From assembly GCA_048938005.1 (NCBI GenBank), contig JBHLMQ010000067.1, positions 1 to 10,547 of the forward strand: 10,547 bases of DNA, read 5' to 3'. A program made the position numbers and the translations under genes. Below the pieces are notes generated by a model that had not been told where the DNA came from, ran no database searches, and worked only from the letters and a program-made list of their open reading frames with translations. Source of the DNA: Promethearchaeota archaeon. GTDB taxonomy: Archaea; Asgardarchaeota; Lokiarchaeia; Sigyniarchaeales; SOKP01. Numbering within the stretch: the first letter of the stretch is position 1; each line of letters opens with the position of its first letter. Shown piece by piece: positions 4,016-10,393 of the stretch.

Positions 4016-6898
4016 ATGTTAAATAAAACAAAATTTAATATTTCAGTAATTGTTTTAGCTATAGGTATTGGTCTTGTACCAACTGGGTTTTTCTTAAATG
4101 GATATTATAGAGATCAAGTCCGTTCCTATGTTCCTGAAACTCTTTTGAATATTCAGGAGACTGTTATACCTGAAATTGAATCACAATTTCTTGGGTTAGG
4201 AATATGCGAGGATTTACCCATTATTCAGGACCAACAAACAGAATATATTGAAGATGAAGTAGTCAAAATACTATCTATTCCAAGTACTCTTTTATACCTT
4301 AAAAATCTATCAATGCCATTATTTTTACAAAGAATAAACGGTTCGATGACAAGTATAAATATTAGCGGAAGTCTAGATGTTGTATCTAATGATATAAATG
4401 ATAAAATTTATGGTTCAATATCAGCTCAGCTAATAAACTCAACAATAAAGCAAGTCATGATTAGTAATTCAACCACAGAAGTTTTTGCTAGAGAGGTTTT
4501 CTTCAATAATTATACTTTTCAAGATAATTATTCAACTTCGATATTGGGTGTCTCGGAATATGCTACAAGCGGTACGAATAAATTAAATTATACTATTACT
4601 GCTCAACAAAGACTGTTAGATGGTTATCTGACTTCTCCAGGTTTAACTCAAGATCTTGAAAATGGTACTGGTGTTCTGGATTTCATGGAATTTTACAATA
4701 ATGCAACGGTAGATCCCTTAACTTACAATCAGACAATGCAAACAACTTATAATTCTACATGGGAGCAACTTACAGCATTAGCAGGATATATCACAAATTA
4801 TTTGTGGAATTCTATAGTTCCTAATATAATTTCCGCAAATTATAGTATGACACCATCAGAATATGCAGCATTTCAAGCGAGAGAGCTTTTCTTTAATGAC
4901 GAACATTGGTCATCTACTACAAAAAATATTACTTCTATTAAGGGTATTTCAGAATATGGAACAGGAGGGGTGAATAACCTAAGTTTTTCGACCGCCGCTC
5001 AAGAAAGAATCTTGTATGGTTATTTATACGCTCCAGGTATTCTAGAAGAACTGGATTTAGGCACAGGTGTTCTCGATTTTCTTGATCTTTATGCACAAAC
5101 CTCTGGGGATATTATAATGCAATCTCTGTATGATGCCACATTTTATCAATTAAAAAATGTAACTTCTTATCTAATTAAATATATGTTTGAAGTAATTGTA
5201 ACTGAACAATTGGGATTAGATGGATTAACTTTAGAGACAGCAGCATTGAGGGATTTCTATAGTCAGTGGGCAAATGCTTCGATTTTCACCCGTGGAATAT
5301 TTCTCAGGGATTTAAGCACTGAACTCGGAAATCAGCTTAGAATGTCAACCGTAGCTAAATTAATTCGAAGTAATATTATTAAAATAGTAAATGTAAATGG
5401 TACAACCTTAGAATTTGCGAGAAATAGGTTTTTTAATGATTTCAATTTAACAGGGAATTTCACAGTAAACATACAAGGTGTCTCTCAATTTAATTCTAGT
5501 AGCACATATAGTCTCAACTATTCAATTAGCTCTCAAGAAAGAATATTGGATGGATATAATGATGCACCAGGAATATTAGAATCGTTTGATACTGGTATAG
5601 GTTTACTCGACTGGTTGGATTTCTATCTATTGGCTTTTCTAGATCTCGGGGCCAACAGAACTTTAATGGAGACTACATATAATGCGACTTGGGTTGATCA
5701 TCTTTTCCCTATGGGACAATATCTCTTAAATTATATGTTAGGTCAAAAAGTTGGAGCATCTACACAAAAAGGTTTAGAAATAGGATTTCCAACACCATCA
5801 GGGATTTCAATGAGTGCGGCCGCAATTCTTTGGGACCCAGCCAATTCATCTAGTTTCGTAAATGATGTGGGAATTCAAAAATGGTCAAGTGCTGAGAAAG
5901 GAAATTTAACTATCCAAAACGAATTGAATATAACTTTTGGTTTTAGTAATACGCAATTCCAAAAAATGTATAACTGGTTATTTTCAACTATAAAAGATGT
6001 TATTGTGCCGATTGTTTTTATTCTCCTGAGACCAACTGGCCTCAGAATAACAACCACTGAATATGCAGAAATTTTAATTCTAGAACAATGGGCAAATGCT
6101 ACTGTTATTCCTGCTGGACTCGATCTTGGGGGCGGAGTTAAAGGTTTCGAAGTAGGTATTCCAGAAAAATCTAATATTTCGTTATCTACAGCAATAGATT
6201 TCTTCGATCTAAAAAATTCATCGTCATTTATTCATAAAAATGGACTTCTAAAATGGATTGATGCCGAAAATGGAGATAATATCACTAGAACCGAATTAAT
6301 CACAACTTTTGATTTAGAAACGGATCAATTTGACTTGATCTTAAACTGGTTATTCACAACATTTAGAAATAATGTTATTCCTATTACTTTTAATATAACA
6401 GGATATACATTAACTGAAATTGCAGGATTGGAATTCTATCGTCAATGGGCTAATGGTTCACTTTTTACTAGTGGACTTGACCCTGGACCAGCCTTTGGAC
6501 TCCCGTCTCTCAGTGGGTGGGAACTGGGTATTCCAACTTCAAGTGGAATAGATCTTGTTATGGGTATGAGATTGTGGGATGAAGAAAATCGTAATTCACT
6601 AGTATCTCAAAGTGGAATTGCCCGTTGGTTTAATGCAATAGAAGATCCTCAAGTGTATAATTATCTGATAAACTATTTCAAGTTTACTGACAGTCAAATG
6701 CAAGGAATGTTTGAGTGGTTAATAAAGATTAGAGAGGATTTCACCCTAATTTACTCGAAATTACAAATGGGGTTACCAATAAACGCATATGAGTTTGGAA
6801 GTTTATTAATCCTTGGATTTACCGTGTGTGGATTTGTTATTGCTGCTAGCGGTGTGTTGTTTGCAATTATAACAAAATTATCTAAACGTCGAAAGTAG
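4016..6898 (+). CDS. Large extracytoplasmic repeat glycoprotein, 960 aa, with N- and C-terminal membrane anchors; family unknown
   Basis: Hydrophobic segments at aa 7-27 and aa 927-952, the latter followed by a basic tail (KLSKRRK). About 33 N-x-S/T sequons (hand count) lie between the anchors. There are six internal repeats. Confidence 0.9.
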   Translation: MLNKTKFNISVIVLAIGIGLVPTGFFLNGYYRDQVRSYVPETLLNIQETVIPEIESQFLGLGICEDLPIIQDQQTEYIEDEVVKILSIPSTLLYLKNLSMPLFLQRINGSMTSINISGSLDVVSNDINDKIYGSISAQLINSTIKQVMISNSTTEVFAREVFFNNYTFQDNYSTSILGVSEYATSGTNKLNYTITAQQRLLDGYLTSPGLTQDLENGTGVLDFMEFYNNATVDPLTYNQTMQTTYNSTWEQLTALAGYITNYLWNSIVPNIISANYSMTPSEYAAFQARELFFNDEHWSSTTKNITSIKGISEYGTGGVNNLSFSTAAQERILYGYLYAPGILEELDLGTGVLDFLDLYAQTSGDIIMQSLYDATFYQLKNVTSYLIKYMFEVIVTEQLGLDGLTLETAALRDFYSQWANASIFTRGIFLRDLSTELGNQLRMSTVAKLIRSNIIKIVNVNGTTLEFARNRFFNDFNLTGNFTVNIQGVSQFNSSSTYSLNYSISSQERILDGYNDAPGILESFDTGIGLLDWLDFYLLAFLDLGANRTLMETTYNATWVDHLFPMGQYLLNYMLGQKVGASTQKGLEIGFPTPSGISMSAAAILWDPANSSSFVNDVGIQKWSSAEKGNLTIQNELNITFGFSNTQFQKMYNWLFSTIKDVIVPIVFILLRPTGLRITTTEYAEILILEQWANATVIPAGLDLGGGVKGFEVGIPEKSNISLSTAIDFFDLKNSSSFIHKNGLLKWIDAENGDNITRTELITTFDLETDQFDLILNWLFTTFRNNVIPITFNITGYTLTEIAGLEFYRQWANGSLFTSGLDPGPAFGLPSLSGWELGIPTSSGIDLVMGMRLWDEENRNSLVSQSGIARWFNAIEDPQVYNYLINYFKFTDSQMQGMFEWLIKIREDFTLIYSKLQMGLPINAYEFGSLLILGFTVCGFVIAASGVLFAIITKLSKRRK
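4487..5737 (+). repeat. Three type-A protein repeats (aa 158-263, 288-390, 468-574; nt 4487-4804, 4877-5185, 5417-5737)
   Basis: Shared pattern ARxxFFN...G(V/I)S(E/Q)(Y/F)...LxY/FS/T...Q(Q/E)R(L/I)LxGYxxxPG(L/I)......GxG(V/L)LD(F/W)xxxY...MxxxYxxT(W/F)...YxxxY(L/M). Confidence 0.92.
5771..6721 (+). repeat. Three type-B protein repeats (aa 586-655, 710-779, 834-902; nt 5771-5980, 6143-6352, 6515-6721)
   Basis: Shared pattern GxExGxPxxSxI......(L/F)(W/F)DxxNxxS(F/L)(V/I)xxxG(I/L)xxWxxA...Fx(F/L)xxxQ.....WL. Associated QWAN motifs occur at aa 417, 691 and 810. Confidence 0.92.
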
Positions 6899-7746: not shown

Positions 7747-9117
7747 TTATTTTTCTAAAAGTTTATTGATAACATTAATCCTTTTTTTAGTTTTCTTTAA
7801 ATCACTTTGAAGTTTTTTGGAGCGCTTTACATATTCCTCATCATTCAATTTTCCCGATGAGTGTTTCTTATCAATAAATTCCAGTAAATCCTGAACAGAT
7901 GTTAATTTTGTTTCTAGGCCTTCTTTTTCATTTTTTAATTCTCTTTTAGTTTTAGCTTTTGTTTTAAGTTTGGGCGCTGGTTTTAAAAATTGTTCTATCT
8001 CATCTTCATCTTTTTTCAAACTTTCTGGTTTGGGAGGTAAAGCTGTTAATATTGGTTCTTCTTGAATACTTATTTCTTCAGTCACTTCAGAATCCTCTAT
8101 ATCAACCTGCTCCTTTGGTTTAATGGTGTAAGTAGAATCAGGGCTTTGAATAGTCTCAGAGTTTTCTAGATCAAAAATTTCATCATCTGAATCGATTGAT
8201 TTTTCAACCAATTTGTCAATTGTAGTTTTTATTGTATTAATTTGATTTTGAAAGATTTTTAATAATTCTATTAATTCACTTTTTTTAGAAATCTTCATTG
8301 AAAAATCAATGTTTATTGATCTCTTTTCAGCTGGAATAGATGGGGCAGAAGTAATACGTTCTTCAGAGATTGTAGGTTGACTAATAGATTTTTGGTCAAT
8401 AGGGGTAGGTAGATCTAGGTTTGCTCTCAACTCCATACGATAATCAGAAATTAACCATTGAAAAAGATTTAATACTAATTGAGGATGGTTATTACATTGA
8501 AAACCTCCTCCAATTTTATCTCTAAACATTTCATAACTTCCAATGCAGCAAACTCTTCCATTTTCTATTTCTGACACACAGATAAGAGGACAGGAAAAGG
8601 GTTCGGATGTTTCATTTGAATCCGCTATAGAAAATGCTCCACTTCCGATAATTGAAAGAGAACATCCTGATCTATAGCACAAGGAACTTATTTCAGCTGT
8701 AATTGGATGAGGTATATTAAATGCAGAAACGAGTGGAATATTTTCTAATCCTAAGTTACTTATTTCATCTAAAACTTGATCATTTTCAAAAGCAATTCCA
8801 AATTGTTCTGATATTTCAGATAAATTACTTCCACGACCCTTATCTCCCCCTGCATGAGATAATAATAATAATCCTCCACCTGAATTCTTAACCCAATTTA
8901 CGATCGCTGAAATTTCAAATGAAGAGATTCTGGCAAAATCAGGGCATACAAAAACGAGAATGTCATATGGCATTAATGATTCTTCTGTAATAGGTACCTC
9001 TAAAAAATTGTAGCAAGTAAAATCATTTGAATTCAAATAATCTCGGAGCTCAGTAAGATTTTCATCAATTCTTCCTCTTGGTTTATGAGAAATATCAAAA
9101 GCGATATGATATGGCAT
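7747..9117 (-). CDS. IFT52-like GIFT (GldG/IFT52) domain protein with low-complexity linker and C-terminal coiled coil, 456 aa
   Basis: aa 1-222 show GIFT-fold motifs: IAFDISHK, ITEESLMPYDILVFVCP, NWVKNSGGGLLLL, NLSEISEQFGIAFEND, HPIT, GRVCCIGSYEMF, NLFQWL. There is no signal peptide or TM. aa 235-390 form a Pro/Ser/Glu-rich linker containing a helix at 278-308, and aa 390-456 form a Lys-rich helical hairpin. Confidence 0.85.
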   Translation of the reverse strand: MPYHIAFDISHKPRGRIDENLTELRDYLNSNDFTCYNFLEVPITEESLMPYDILVFVCPDFARISSFEISAIVNWVKNSGGGLLLLSHAGGDKGRGSNLSEISEQFGIAFENDQVLDEISNLGLENIPLVSAFNIPHPITAEISSLCYRSGCSLSIIGSGAFSIADSNETSEPFSCPLICVSEIENGRVCCIGSYEMFRDKIGGGFQCNNHPQLVLNLFQWLISDYRMELRANLDLPTPIDQKSISQPTISEERITSAPSIPAEKRSINIDFSMKISKKSELIELLKIFQNQINTIKTTIDKLVEKSIDSDDEIFDLENSETIQSPDSTYTIKPKEQVDIEDSEVTEEISIQEEPILTALPPKPESLKKDEDEIEQFLKPAPKLKTKAKTKRELKNEKEGLETKLTSVQDLLEFIDKKHSSGKLNDEEYVKRSKKLQSDLKKTKKRINVINKLLEK

Positions 9118-9274: not shown

Positions 9275-10372
9275 TTAATAAACACTTTTATCTCCAATAA
9301 TTAAGTTATCTTTGCATATATTCTCAACTTTTACATTACTACCAATGATCGAGTTCTGTGATATTATATTTTTTAGGAGAGCTCTTTTTTCAATAACACA
9401 ATTTTCTAAAATACAATTTTCAATATAGGAGTTTTCGCCTATTGAGATATATGGTCCGATTACAGAATTTAATATTTTTGTATTTTCTCCTATATAAATA
9501 GGATTCTTTAAGAAGGATTTTTCCACTGCTATGTTTAAATTCTGAAAATCTTCGACTCTAATAGAATTTTGTTCTAAAAGATACTTATTTCCATTTAAAA
9601 GTTCGGAAGGTCTCCCAAAATCCATTACCCCTTGTTTTAATTTAACAGCTGCAATTTTATAACCTTGATTCACTAGATCCTGTAAACTTTGTGTCATATA
9701 AATTTCCTTTGAGTTATCTGTTCTTTGATCCAGATATTTCTTAAGGTTTCTGAATAATGTACAAGTAGCTGTATTTGAAAATGCGTACGGGCCAGCAATA
9801 GCAAGATCTGATACAAATTTCTTTGGTTTTTCAACTAATTTTTGAATCAAATTATTATTATCAATAGTAACTATTCCATATGAATGTGCATCCTCTTTTG
9901 GTACTTTCATAACGGTTATTATTCCGTCTACATCAGATTCCCAATATTTATACATTAAATATGAATATTCATCAATAGGAATCATGTCACTTAAGAAAAT
10001 AAGCGATCCTTCTTTTTTATCATCTTTCAGATTTTTCGATTTCGATTCTTTAAATCTCGAATGTGCTAAATAGACCGCTTCTCCTAAACCCCAATAATAT
10101 GGGATACCTTCTTCGTATCCTCGTGGTATTTGTTCAATAAATGTTAATTTAAACTTTTCATTATAGTGTTTTTGTATATATTCCATTATTTGTCTTTTCT
10201 TATAACCGACTATTAAAATTAATTCTGTATTTGAATCAAATGTATTAGTGAATTTAAGTAGATTATGATCTAAAACAGTTTTTCCTGCAACTGTTAAGAA
10301 TGCTTTCGGTTTACTTAGTGTAAAGGGCTTTAATCTACTCCCTATTCCTGCAATTGGACCAATTATTTTCAT
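9275..10372 (-). CDS. Sugar-1-phosphate nucleotidyltransferase (long-form glucose-1-phosphate thymidylyltransferase-like) with C-terminal left-handed beta-helix (365 aa from ATG 10372; ORF track starts at GTG 10378)
   Basis: Signature GPIAGIGSRLKPFTLSKPK, GLGEAV, SYGIV, LVEKP, LAIAGPYAF, DFGRPSELL. Hexapeptide repeats follow (PIYIGENTKILNSVIGPYISIGENSYIENC). Substrate specificity cannot be determined from the sequence. Confidence 0.92.
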   Translation of the reverse strand: MKIIGPIAGIGSRLKPFTLSKPKAFLTVAGKTVLDHNLLKFTNTFDSNTELILIVGYKKRQIMEYIQKHYNEKFKLTFIEQIPRGYEEGIPYYWGLGEAVYLAHSRFKESKSKNLKDDKKEGSLIFLSDMIPIDEYSYLMYKYWESDVDGIITVMKVPKEDAHSYGIVTIDNNNLIQKLVEKPKKFVSDLAIAGPYAFSNTATCTLFRNLKKYLDQRTDNSKEIYMTQSLQDLVNQGYKIAAVKLKQGVMDFGRPSELLNGNKYLLEQNSIRVEDFQNLNIAVEKSFLKNPIYIGENTKILNSVIGPYISIGENSYIENCILENCVIEKRALLKNIISQNSIIGSNVKVENICKDNLIIGDKSVY

Positions 10373-10393
10373 ATTCACTAAAAAATTAATAAG

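Follow-up and report, generated by a model that had tools for sequence, protein, structure and literature searches.

A cytoplasmic protein of a Lokiarchaeial archaeon and its GIFT domain, a homologue of the IFT52 N-terminal domain

The gene described here, found in a window of 10,547 nucleotides (the whole stretch of DNA analysed) from a Lokiarchaeial (Asgard) archaeon, encodes a cytoplasmic protein with a GIFT domain in its N-terminal half. Residues 1–227 constitute a genuine GIFT domain. Its homologue in IFT52, the N-terminal domain (IFT52N), is also the closest solved structure to it. The likeness to IFT52 is not specific to the group of orthologues to which the protein belongs and is common to many archaeal and bacterial proteins. 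On balance we favour the reading that the protein is a soluble, probably non-enzymatic docking scaffold, by analogy with its nearest relative, and that the comparison of sequences and folds points to a domain-level relative of IFT52 rather than to an IFT52 orthologue. The same reading, held with the same modest preference, takes the orthologous group to be mostly single-copy and widespread, though not universal, among Asgard lineages, and to sit within a far larger GIFT family, of which each Asgard genome encodes several paralogues, cytoplasmic as well as secreted, and which extends to other archaea and to bacteria.

Gene and protein architecture

The coordinates of the gene and of the parts of its product are collected in Table 1. 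The span which had drawn attention in the initial annotation, 8452–9117, corresponds to residues 1–222 of this protein.

Table 1. Features of the GIFT-protein gene, in positions of the window
Feature	Positions	Strand	Basis
Whole gene, 456-aa cytoplasmic GIFT-domain protein (P0001)	7747..9117	(-)	ORF list and translation; ATG start
Stop codon of the gene	7747-7749	(-)	
GIFT domain, residues 1-227, class I glutamine-amidotransferase-like alpha/beta fold	8437..9117	(-)	PF23355, AlphaFold2, IFT52N superposition
Loop motif GG[DE]x4[STN]N[LIVMF], residues 90-99, GGDKGRGSNL, after strand 82-87	8821..8850	(-)	Invariant columns
Linker, residues 228-390, mostly disordered, one long helix 273-320	7948..8436	(-)	pLDDT, composition
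C-terminal helical hairpin, residues 391-456, helices 391-420 and 426-455	7750..7947	(-)	pLDDT 88-95

The protein has no signal peptide, and a 19-residue uncharged hydrophobic window was found neither in it nor in any of the 19 orthologues checked, which agrees with the initial description of an N-terminal domain free of signal peptide and transmembrane segment. A total of 561 homologues was obtained, the best 120 of the 561 being 83–100% identical to the protein over residues 1–230. For the orthologue alignments 20 homologues were fetched, and the weakest two, L023 (E 2.6e-12) and L025 (E 3.6e-15), were left out.

In the AlphaFold2 model the GIFT domain has pLDDT values mostly above 90 over residues 1–225, while values in the linker fall below 50 at residues 228–276 and 315–387. 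The 163 residues of the linker include 34 D+E, 13 P and 30 S+T; its columns could not be aligned among the orthologues, where it is unconserved, and no Pfam family matched it. The hairpin-like tail was alignable in 8 of the 19 orthologues, and the C-terminal halves of five orthologues gave no Pfam family at its cut-off and only sub-threshold noise of coiled-coil type at E≤10.

Similarity of the GIFT domain to IFT52

The Pfam family PF23355 (IFT52_GIFT) matched the protein with 43.5 bits (E 2.7e-11; cut-off 27.2), ahead of ABC_transp_aux (PF09822), whose 16.1 bits lie below the cut-off of 34.7, and of DUF4350 (PF14258), for which there was no match at E≤1. All 19 orthologues were matched by PF23355 at E≤1e-3 and above its cut-off, the best E value being 1.3e-28. 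A phmmer search with the single protein against the PDB sequences returned 10 sequences at E≤10, of which only three, all of them IFT52, reached E≤1e-3 (5fmr_A, 1.3e-5; 8bd7_B, 4.6e-5; 5fms_A, 1e-3), the first match after the IFT52 chains having E 0.5. The profile of the 19 orthologues found the same protein in three chains with E values from 2.8e-25 to 1.6e-22 and 83–92 bits (best 92.1), followed by a next match at E 0.2, and the alignment spanned both halves of the domain, at positions 4–129 and 147–223. Seven colinear motif blocks shared with IFT52 had been listed in the initial annotation; six of these were recovered in the HMMER alignment to mouse IFT52, and the remaining one, the N-terminal strand, in the profile alignment.

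The comparison of structures led to the same assignment. Foldseek placed IFT52N best for the AlphaFold model (E 1.9e-16; TM 0.77–0.87 on the target), and VIA-align superposed the model on it with Z 28.4 and rmsd 2.2 Å, 219 of 227 residues being aligned with 22% identity. The VIA Z values were 28.4 and 28.1 for IFT52N, compared with 22.3 for OST48, 19.1 for STM1381 and 16.3 for ThuA.

IFT52N, as represented by PDB entries 5FMR and 5FMS and by PF23355, has the same fold and a sequence colinear with that of the Asgard domain throughout (rmsd 2.1–2.2 Å and 20–22% identity in the two superpositions). Both proteins are cytoplasmic, both contain the loop GG[DE]x4[STN]N, and in both the domain is followed by a non-globular linker.

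Differences from IFT52

Besides these common traits, the halves of the domain are set further apart in IFT52 by a longer insert, and the column of Cys152 of the Asgard protein is occupied by Ala in both IFT52 chains. Past residue ~227 no likeness to the IFT88/IFT70-binding centre or to the IFT46-binding C-domain of IFT52 was detected by HMMER, Pfam or VIA, the C-terminal comparison having covered the whole protein and, with Pfam, the C-terminal halves. When full-length IFT52 (8bd7_B, 454 aa) was used, HMMER aligned only chain residues 52–119 and 180–230, and VIA only 7–255. The layout of GIFT domain, linker and helical C-terminal part, which had been compared to that of IFT52, stands as a description of the protein, and its likeness to IFT52 is a generic one.

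According to PMC4818760 and PMC9753473, a conserved basic patch of Chlamydomonas IFT52, K130 and R204, is needed for the contact between IFT-B1 and IFT-B2, and IFT52N, which has no catalytic residues, serves as a platform to which IFT88 and IFT57/38 bind. In the HMMER alignments K130 and R204 of 8bd7_B face the consensus residues t and a of the orthologue profile, and these columns are not basic; in the 456-aa protein it is Cys176 that faces R204.

The genome, which is 95% complete, was searched for the partner subunits IFT46 and IFT57. IFT46 (PF12317, IFT46_B_C) had no place at E≤0.1, and IFT57 (PF10498) had no credible match in it, the single place of 13.6 bits coming from a search that was positive in 8 of the 14 control genomes as well. 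Co-occurrence with IFT partners was not seen for these two subunits.

The wider GIFT family

It was found that 6617 representative proteins match the orthologue profile at E≤1e-3, and that at least 150 of them are nearer to this profile than IFT52 is, the best 150 of the 6617 ending at 126.7 bits. The domain groups used below were drawn by us from a FastTree tree of these best 150 of 6617 matches; domain matches with less than 35 bits or fewer than 150 profile positions were dropped, and 163 domains were kept. From a further alignment (A8) P0243 and P0187 were omitted. For every profile of a cytoplasmic Asgard-type group IFT52 was the sole significant match in the PDB, with 92.1, 65.9, 67.5, 71.1 and 53.7 bits.

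The family includes secreted multidomain proteins from clusters named Thermoprotei, Bathyarchaeota, Methanofastidiosia and Zixibacteria, and of 30 top-matching proteins looked up 7 clusters carried an organism name. A control profile was built from secreted GIFT domains, several of which have named non-Asgard relatives in these four taxa, and it matched IFT52 in the PDB with 90.0 bits (E 1.6e-24), the alignment running unbroken through the entire domain, as against 92.1 bits for the orthologue profile. Of 10 proteins of the secreted control type, 4 likewise had PF23355 as their top family, with up to 113.6 bits. The scores of PF23355 were 69–114 bits in proteins that are secreted or could not be placed, and Thermoprotei-named members occur in the clusters of two of them. 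The proposal of the initial annotation that the protein lies close to the ancestor of IFT52 is not supported. Against it stand the strength of the secreted control, the rank of PF23355 in secreted proteins, the number of representative proteins nearer to the profile, a C-terminal half without IFT52 likeness, the lack of an IFT46 or credible IFT57 match in the genome and the failure to find the orthologue in 13 of the 27 Asgard families sampled.

In the secreted multi-GIFT surface proteins of other archaea and bacteria (for example P0188 and P0261, whose clusters have Thermoprotei-named members; P0186, Bathyarchaeota; P0193, Zixibacteria) the single domains score 47–111 bits with the profile of the orthologues, and at the profile level these proteins are as IFT52-like as the orthologues. 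Signal peptides and tandem GIFT domains are found in them together with CARDB, PKD, subtilase or T9SS modules. GldG/ABC_transp_aux and DUF4350 belong to the same superfamily as the Asgard protein, and their families give sub-dominant matches at E≤1e-3 to 15 and 10, respectively, of the 19 orthologues; the named members are extracytoplasmic, unlike the Asgard protein with its lack of signal peptide and membrane segment. The Salmonella proteins STM3548 and STM1381 (2GK3, 3SOZ), cytoplasmic single-domain relatives of GATase1 type whose function is not known, superpose with Z 18.9–19.1 and gave no significant sequence match in the orthologue-profile search of the PDB.

The main value of these data at present is one of caution. 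The name IFT52_GIFT covers a very broad prokaryotic family, and a match to it therefore cannot be taken to indicate a eukaryote-like system. UniRef already contains the automatically assigned name 'IFT52 GIFT domain-containing protein', and in the full-text literature, as far as it could be searched, no report of a conserved cytoplasmic family of IFT52 type in Asgard archaea was found, the supplementary tables of Asgard signature-protein surveys, which may include it, being outside that search.

Distribution in Asgard archaea and beyond

PF23355 has places in 147 of the 151 genomes of the Asgard phylum sample and in 0 of 14 control genomes, the prokaryotic controls for this distribution being these 14 named genomes and the Atlas clusters. 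The orthologue itself (E≤1e-50) occurs in 85 of the 151 Asgard genomes and in 59 of the 72 of high quality; this cytoplasmic protein is thus widely kept in Asgard archaea. Cytoplasmic paralogues bearing the loop motif are present in Asgard families in which the orthologue was not found. Relatives in the genomes of GTDB species numbered 135, and of the best 80 nearly all are Asgard-titled or untitled, the two exceptions being L034, with a Thermoproteota title, and L094, titled Deferrimicrobium, whose genome falls in the window's own phylum sample.

In an Atlas search the nearest listed clusters were bacterial and archaeal and included no eukaryotic IFT52, in a collection that is poor in eukaryotes and with scores for partial proteins that are uncalibrated.

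The conserved loop and the possible function of the protein

Residues G91, D92, G94 and N98 are invariant in the 19 orthologues, and residues 91–94 have pLDDT below 50 in the AlphaFold2 model, as expected of a flexible loop; the strongest conservation in the orthologues is thus found in a surface loop of low pLDDT. The motif is present in both IFT52 chains in the HMMER alignments, and groups G1, G2 and G3 have it in 67 of 71, 14 of 14 and 7 of 8 domains, respectively. It is absent from the 44 other secreted domains (0/44), occurs in 4 of 9 domains of the PKD/beta-helix-linked group, which has no taxon assignment, and is missing from one cytoplasmic group (0/9).

The preference for a non-enzymatic scaffold derives from the behaviour of IFT52N, a binding platform devoid of catalytic residues, and from the location of the strongest conservation in that loop. 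The GIFT domain would offer a docking surface to other proteins, as it does in IFT52, and the invariant flexible loop after strand 4 may be the site of contact, while the helical tail could tether the protein or self-associate. An invariant Cys152 and a nearly invariant His137 leave room for catalysis and count against this assignment.

Origin of the IFT52 GIFT domain

To our knowledge, the origin of the non-coatomer core subunits of IFT-B is unsettled; in the accepted model IFT arose from a coatomer-like progenitor. It is tempting to speculate that the Asgard cytoplasmic GIFT proteins, that is the orthologue together with the paralogues having the GG[DE] loop, are the lineage from which the GIFT domain of IFT52 descended vertically. 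The docking module, central to the IFT-B core, would then be older than cilia and have begun as a cytoplasmic scaffold of archaea, IFT52 would consist of this module and a new IFT88/70/46-binding tail, and the Asgard family would be a new eukaryotic signature protein. We consider such a descent doubtful, with perhaps a minor chance of being correct. In its favour, IFT52 is the only significant PDB match of each cytoplasmic Asgard-type group, the orthologue group scores highest among them, with an alignment that extends over the two domain halves, and the loop motif distinguishes G1–G3 and IFT52 from the other secreted domains. The protein is moreover cytoplasmic like IFT52, unlike GldG or OST48, and motif-bearing cytoplasmic paralogues are present in Asgard families where the orthologue was not found. 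Against it stand the secreted control, which matches IFT52 over the whole domain at 90.0 bits, and the higher PF23355 scores of secreted or unplaced proteins in comparison with the 43.5 bits of the 456-aa protein. The motif is in addition not confined to the cytoplasmic groups nor universal in them, and the groups themselves rest on the FastTree tree of the best 150 of 6617 matches. The missing IFT52-like centre and C-terminus, the non-basic K130 and R204 columns, the lack of an IFT46 match in the genome and the 13 of 27 families without a detected orthologue point in the same direction. If a tree were to tie IFT52 to the Asgard proteins, a component of ciliary transport would join the Asgard inheritance, and the IFT52 docking domain would gain a prokaryotic model open to experiment.

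The residues which leave room for catalysis could alternatively belong to a cryptic enzyme, in which Cys152, His137 and an acidic residue form a site of class I amidotransferase or DJ-1 type that hydrolyses an amide or a thioester. C152 is invariant in the 19 orthologues, as are D92, E68 and D117, H137 is conserved to at least 90%, and glutaminase subunits have the same fold (VIA Z 15.7 for Pdx2 and 14.8 for anthranilate synthase). The nucleophile of amidotransferases, however, sits in the elbow after strand 4, and Cys152, which opens the second-half strand 152–156 in the AlphaFold2 model, is therefore wrongly placed for this role. The replacement of the Cys by Ala in both IFT52 chains and the absence of a catalytic GATase Pfam family above its cut-off also speak against an enzyme, and the recurrence of the H-P-I-T and G-C-S-L motifs across groups, secreted ones included, suggests a structural role for them. 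An enzymatic activity of this kind is accordingly judged improbable, and the docking scaffold is retained as the preferred reading.

Gene neighbourhood

The neighbourhoods of 80 loci and of the window's contig were compared, about 60 of the loci being from Thorarchaeota and hence not independent. Neighbours differ among the Asgard classes, synteny being held within classes only, and no obvious partner was found among the neighbouring genes over the 80 loci and the window. A 960-aa neighbour protein gave no internal repeat at E≤1e-3 in a self-BLAST, though repeats are visible by eye.

OST48/Wbp1 is a lumenal, membrane-anchored subunit of oligosaccharyltransferase and one of the three founding GIFT families. 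Its N-terminal domain (PF03345) comes second to IFT52N in the structural comparison (Z 22.3, rmsd 2.7 Å, 216 residues aligned), and in the window an NTP-transferase (sugar-1-phosphate nucleotidyltransferase) gene lies directly upstream of the GIFT-protein gene, the same family being found two genes upstream in four Odin-type loci. Taken with the original proposal of GIFT domains as sugar-binding (Beatson and Ponting 2004, as quoted in PMC7226087), these observations would suit a module with affinity for a carbohydrate or a nucleotide-sugar intermediate that takes part in glycosylation together with the adjoining enzyme, but this is very unlikely, as the NTP-transferase neighbour occurs in only 5 of 81 loci, none of them of the Thor, Jord/Frey or Hel types, and PF03345 (OST48_N) matches one of the 19 orthologues (E 2.8e-5), has no match to the 456-aa protein at E≤1 and has 0 places in the genome. 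The neighbours in loci of the Thor/Jord type are a PCC-domain protein, DNA polymerase B and HIT, and in those of the Odin type a B3/4-domain protein.

GIFT domain and its likeness to IFT52

The window makes up the leading 10,547 bases of a contig of 14,427 bases, from a genome of 3.72 Mb and 101 contigs with a completeness of 95% and a contamination of 7%. The GIFT-domain protein encoded in it has 456 residues (see Table), the span 8452-9117 of the initial annotation corresponding to the first 222. Pfam analysis assigned the protein to IFT52_GIFT (PF23355; 43.5 bits, E 2.7e-11, cut-off 27.2); ABC_transp_aux scored 16.1 bits, below its cut-off of 34.7, and at E<=1 no family besides these two was found. 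When the single sequence was compared with the PDB sequences by phmmer, three IFT52 chains were retrieved (E 1.3e-5, 4.6e-5 and 1e-3), the first match after them having E 0.5.

Twenty homologous places were fetched from other genomes of the phylum, and those 18 that matched the query at E<=5e-28 were aligned with the window protein over the full length (A1) and over the GIFT domain (A2). In A2 the orthologues are 29-42% identical to the window protein and 16 columns are invariant, including G91, D92, G94, N98, C152, P173 and Y195. In the PDB, the A2 profile matched IFT52 alone (92.1 bits, E 2.8e-25, positions 4-129 and 147-223), the following match having E 0.2. The AlphaFold2 model built on A1 showed pLDDT mostly >90 for residues 1-225, with the exception of blocks 91-100 (62) and 11-20 (76). 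Foldseek with this model placed IFT52N, IFT52's GIFT domain at the N terminus, on top (E 1.9e-16, target TM 0.77-0.87, identity 20-22%), followed by OST48/Wbp1 (1.5e-10) and then STM3548, ThuA-like proteins, site-1 protease and GH42 middle domains. The VIA-align superposition on IFT52N gave Z 28.4 and 28.1 with rmsd 2.1-2.2 A over 215-219 residues, and lower Z values for OST48 (22.3), STM1381 (19.1), a GATase1-like protein (18.0), ThuA (16.3) and Pdx2 (15.7).

The resemblance to IFT52 first recognized by motif comparison is thus borne out by Pfam, phmmer, the A2 profile, Foldseek and VIA-align; six of the seven colinear blocks were reproduced in the phmmer alignment to mouse IFT52, and the N-terminal block in the profile alignment. 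The proposed cytoplasmic location, with neither signal peptide nor transmembrane segment, agrees with the finding that no uncharged hydrophobic 19-mer occurs in the window protein or the 18 orthologues. It is confirmed that this cytoplasmic Asgard protein carries a true, well-conserved IFT52-type GIFT domain.

Specificity of the likeness

The A2 profile matched 6617 representative proteins at E<=1e-3, of which 1885 reach 1e-10 and 162 reach 1e-30. Because the 150th-best still scored 126.7 bits, versus 83-92 bits for IFT52, at least 150 representatives are nearer to the orthologous group than IFT52 is. About 64 orthologues head the best 150, followed by other cytoplasmic groups and by long secreted proteins, each of which contains between one and ten GIFT domains. 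IFT52 was the top PDB match for every group profile built, with 65.9, 67.5, 71.1 and 53.7 bits for four cytoplasmic groups and 73.2 bits for the PKD/beta-helix-linked group. The decisive result came from a control profile of 11 secreted domains, which aligned across the whole domain without a break at 90.0 bits (E 1.6e-24), and the clusters of five of these domains hold members named Zixibacteria, Thermoprotei (two), Bathyarchaeota and Methanofastidiosia. In Pfam, nine of ten secreted or unplaced proteins matched PF23355 at E<=1e-5, and for four it was the best family (113.6, 102, 85.7 and 69.3 bits, versus 43.5 for the window protein); the Atlas contains bacterial and Thermoplasmatota clusters with PF23355 in 95-97% of members. 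It follows from the control profile, Pfam and Atlas results that the name IFT52_GIFT marks a broad prokaryotic family and not a eukaryote-like protein. So far as can be judged from profiles, the likeness to IFT52 is not peculiar to the window's Asgard protein.

A closer tie is suggested by other data. Among the Asgard paralogues, the group profiles gave the strongest and most complete IFT52 match in the PDB for the window's orthologous group, and to this group belong 10 of the best 13 PF23355 places in the phylum scan (nine fetched and confirmed, G044:C105 confirmed by the orthologue search at E<=1e-50). The loop after strand 4, GG[DE]x4[STN]N[LIVMF], is present in both IFT52 chains (phmmer and profile alignments) and in 67 of 71 domains of the orthologous group. 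It also occurs in 14/14 and 7/8 domains of two cytoplasmic paralogue groups, 3/8 and 0/9 of two further groups, 4/9 of the PKD-linked group and none of the remaining 44 secreted domains, these counts covering the top 150 hits only and concerning a single character, which can mislead. The groups were drawn by hand on a FastTree of the top hits, independently of the motif.

Orthology to IFT52 is opposed by several differences. The sequence and fold alignments of full-length IFT52 (8bd7_B) to the window protein end where the GIFT domain ends. Beyond about residue 227 the orthologues show low-complexity sequence, unalignable in A1, and then helices; the AlphaFold2 model shows residues 228-276 and 315-387 as disordered, 273-320 as a helix and 391-455 as a confidently predicted helical hairpin, and Pfam found no family at cut-off in the C-terminal halves of five orthologues. 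Mutation of IFT52 K130/R204 is reported to abolish IFT-B2 binding (PMC4818760, PMC9753473); in the A2 profile, positions 130 (K) and 204 (R) of the IFT52 chain lie opposite consensus t and a, and in the phmmer alignment R204 lies opposite Cys176 of the window protein. The 95% complete genome gave no match to IFT46_B_C or OST48_N, and a sole match to IFT57 at 13.6 bits, such places being found also in 8 of 14 control genomes.

The protein is a further member of an already known domain family. The initial annotation had set it close to the ancestor of IFT52, a placement that may plausibly hold but is weakened by the control profile of secreted domains, several with named non-Asgard relatives, which also matches IFT52. 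It seems rather unlikely that a proper tree would raise the protein to a new eukaryotic signature protein. Full-text literature searches gave no paper that connects Asgard archaea with IFT52 or with GIFT domains; the family may appear in supplementary lists of Asgard gene clusters.

Distribution in Asgard genomes

PF23355 was matched in 147 of 151 sampled genomes of the phylum, above cut-off in 141, covering every family except f9 (0/1), and in none of 14 control genomes. The window's genome has six places; four are cytoplasmic-looking proteins of 255-456 aa, including the window's own, and a fifth, C44, is a stop-to-stop frame of 419 aa. Another is a frame in which an S8 subtilase domain and a GIFT domain (47 bits against the orthologue profile) occur together with a signal/anchor segment, a membrane segment at the C-terminal end and a cysteine-pair tail; the subtilase-plus-GIFT pairing recurs in protein P0243 and in eukaryotic site-1 protease, the latter among the fold matches.

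The orthologue proper, defined by E<=1e-50 to A2, was found in 85/151 genomes (59 of the 72 of high quality), as a single match in 82 of the 85. Fourteen of the 27 families contain it, and in the other 13 the search at this threshold did not find it; five genomes from the latter contain relatives at 84-118 bits or none, some of these relatives being cytoplasmic with the loop motif. In four orthologue matches the GIFT domain contains a single in-frame stop, TGA or TAA; these could be pseudogenes, assembly errors or six-frame artefacts.

The database homologue search gave 561 matches at E<=1e-3 among 1635 candidates; in the best 120, identity over residues 1-230 is 83-100%. The closest proteins are labelled hypothetical, from Promethearchaeota or Lokiarchaeota MAGs, and one of them was automatically named 'IFT52 GIFT domain-containing protein' in UniRef. 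The source organism is accordingly an Asgard archaeon of the Loki type. NCBI labels of MAGs with proteins 84-92% identical to the window protein include Hod-, Hermod-, Odin-, Thor- and Heimdall-archaeota besides Promethearchaeota; because they differ among near-identical proteins they were disregarded for lineage, and they should not enter lineage counts. A scan of GTDB species genomes by N-terminal motif gave 135 relatives, the best 80 of which are titled Sigyn-, Jord-, Frey-, Odin-, Thor-, Hel-, Hermod- or Heimdall-archaeota or untitled as to lineage, apart from two, Thermoproteota (L034) and 'Candidatus Deferrimicrobium sp.' (L094, genome G151). A phylum search centred on L094 returned the same places as the window's Asgard sample, so that its title probably reflects mislabelling or a mixed bin.

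Gene neighbourhood and possible function

IFT52N is reported to be a docking platform, with no enzymatic activity and no sugar binding (PMC4818760, PMC9753473). By analogy, the window protein is best read as a scaffold, whose GIFT domain would bind partners via the conserved flexible loop and whose tail would serve tethering or self-association. Catalysis via the invariant Cys152 and the near-invariant His137 has a small chance, judged from residue conservation.

From the 81 gene neighbourhoods compared no partner emerges. The orthologue gene is preceded by a PCC-domain gene and DNA polymerase B in Thor- and Jord/Frey-type loci, by a B3/4-domain gene in Odin-type loci and by an NTP-transferase gene on the window's contig. 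On this contig, as in four Odin-type loci, the surroundings of the GIFT gene include a sugar-1-phosphate nucleotidyltransferase family together with a TrmB-family regulator, and this is a synteny remnant across classes. In Jord- and Frey-archaeial loci (L029-L035) a gene for a 188-aa ARPC4-like protein is directly downstream of, and convergent with, the orthologue, the family being present at 7 of the 81 loci.

Table. Coordinates of the genes and frames discussed
Feature	Location	Strand	Remarks
GIFT-domain protein gene	window 7747-9117	-	456-aa open frame, ATG start
Sugar-1-phosphate nucleotidyltransferase / TrmB-family neighbours	window 9275-10378 and 2129-2971	both -	also L036, L037, L041, L046
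960-aa ORF	window 4016-6898	+	hydrophobic segments at both ends; 35 N-x-S/T sequons
ARPC4-like protein (example)	L031:7367-7933	-	PF05856, 30.6 bits, cut-off 22.2
Subtilase + GIFT frame	G000 (window's genome):C11:58507-62529	+	1341 aa; PF23355 place
Orthologue matches with in-frame stop	G097:C177:73430-74095; G115:C108:16112-16771; G068:C150:27964-28623; G045:C8:3-572		six-frame search

The 960-aa ORF of the window matched no Pfam or NCBIfam family above cut-off; three look-alike blocks are visible by eye, and self-BLAST reports no repeat at E<=1e-3. The ORF probably encodes a surface protein that is large and N-glycosylated.
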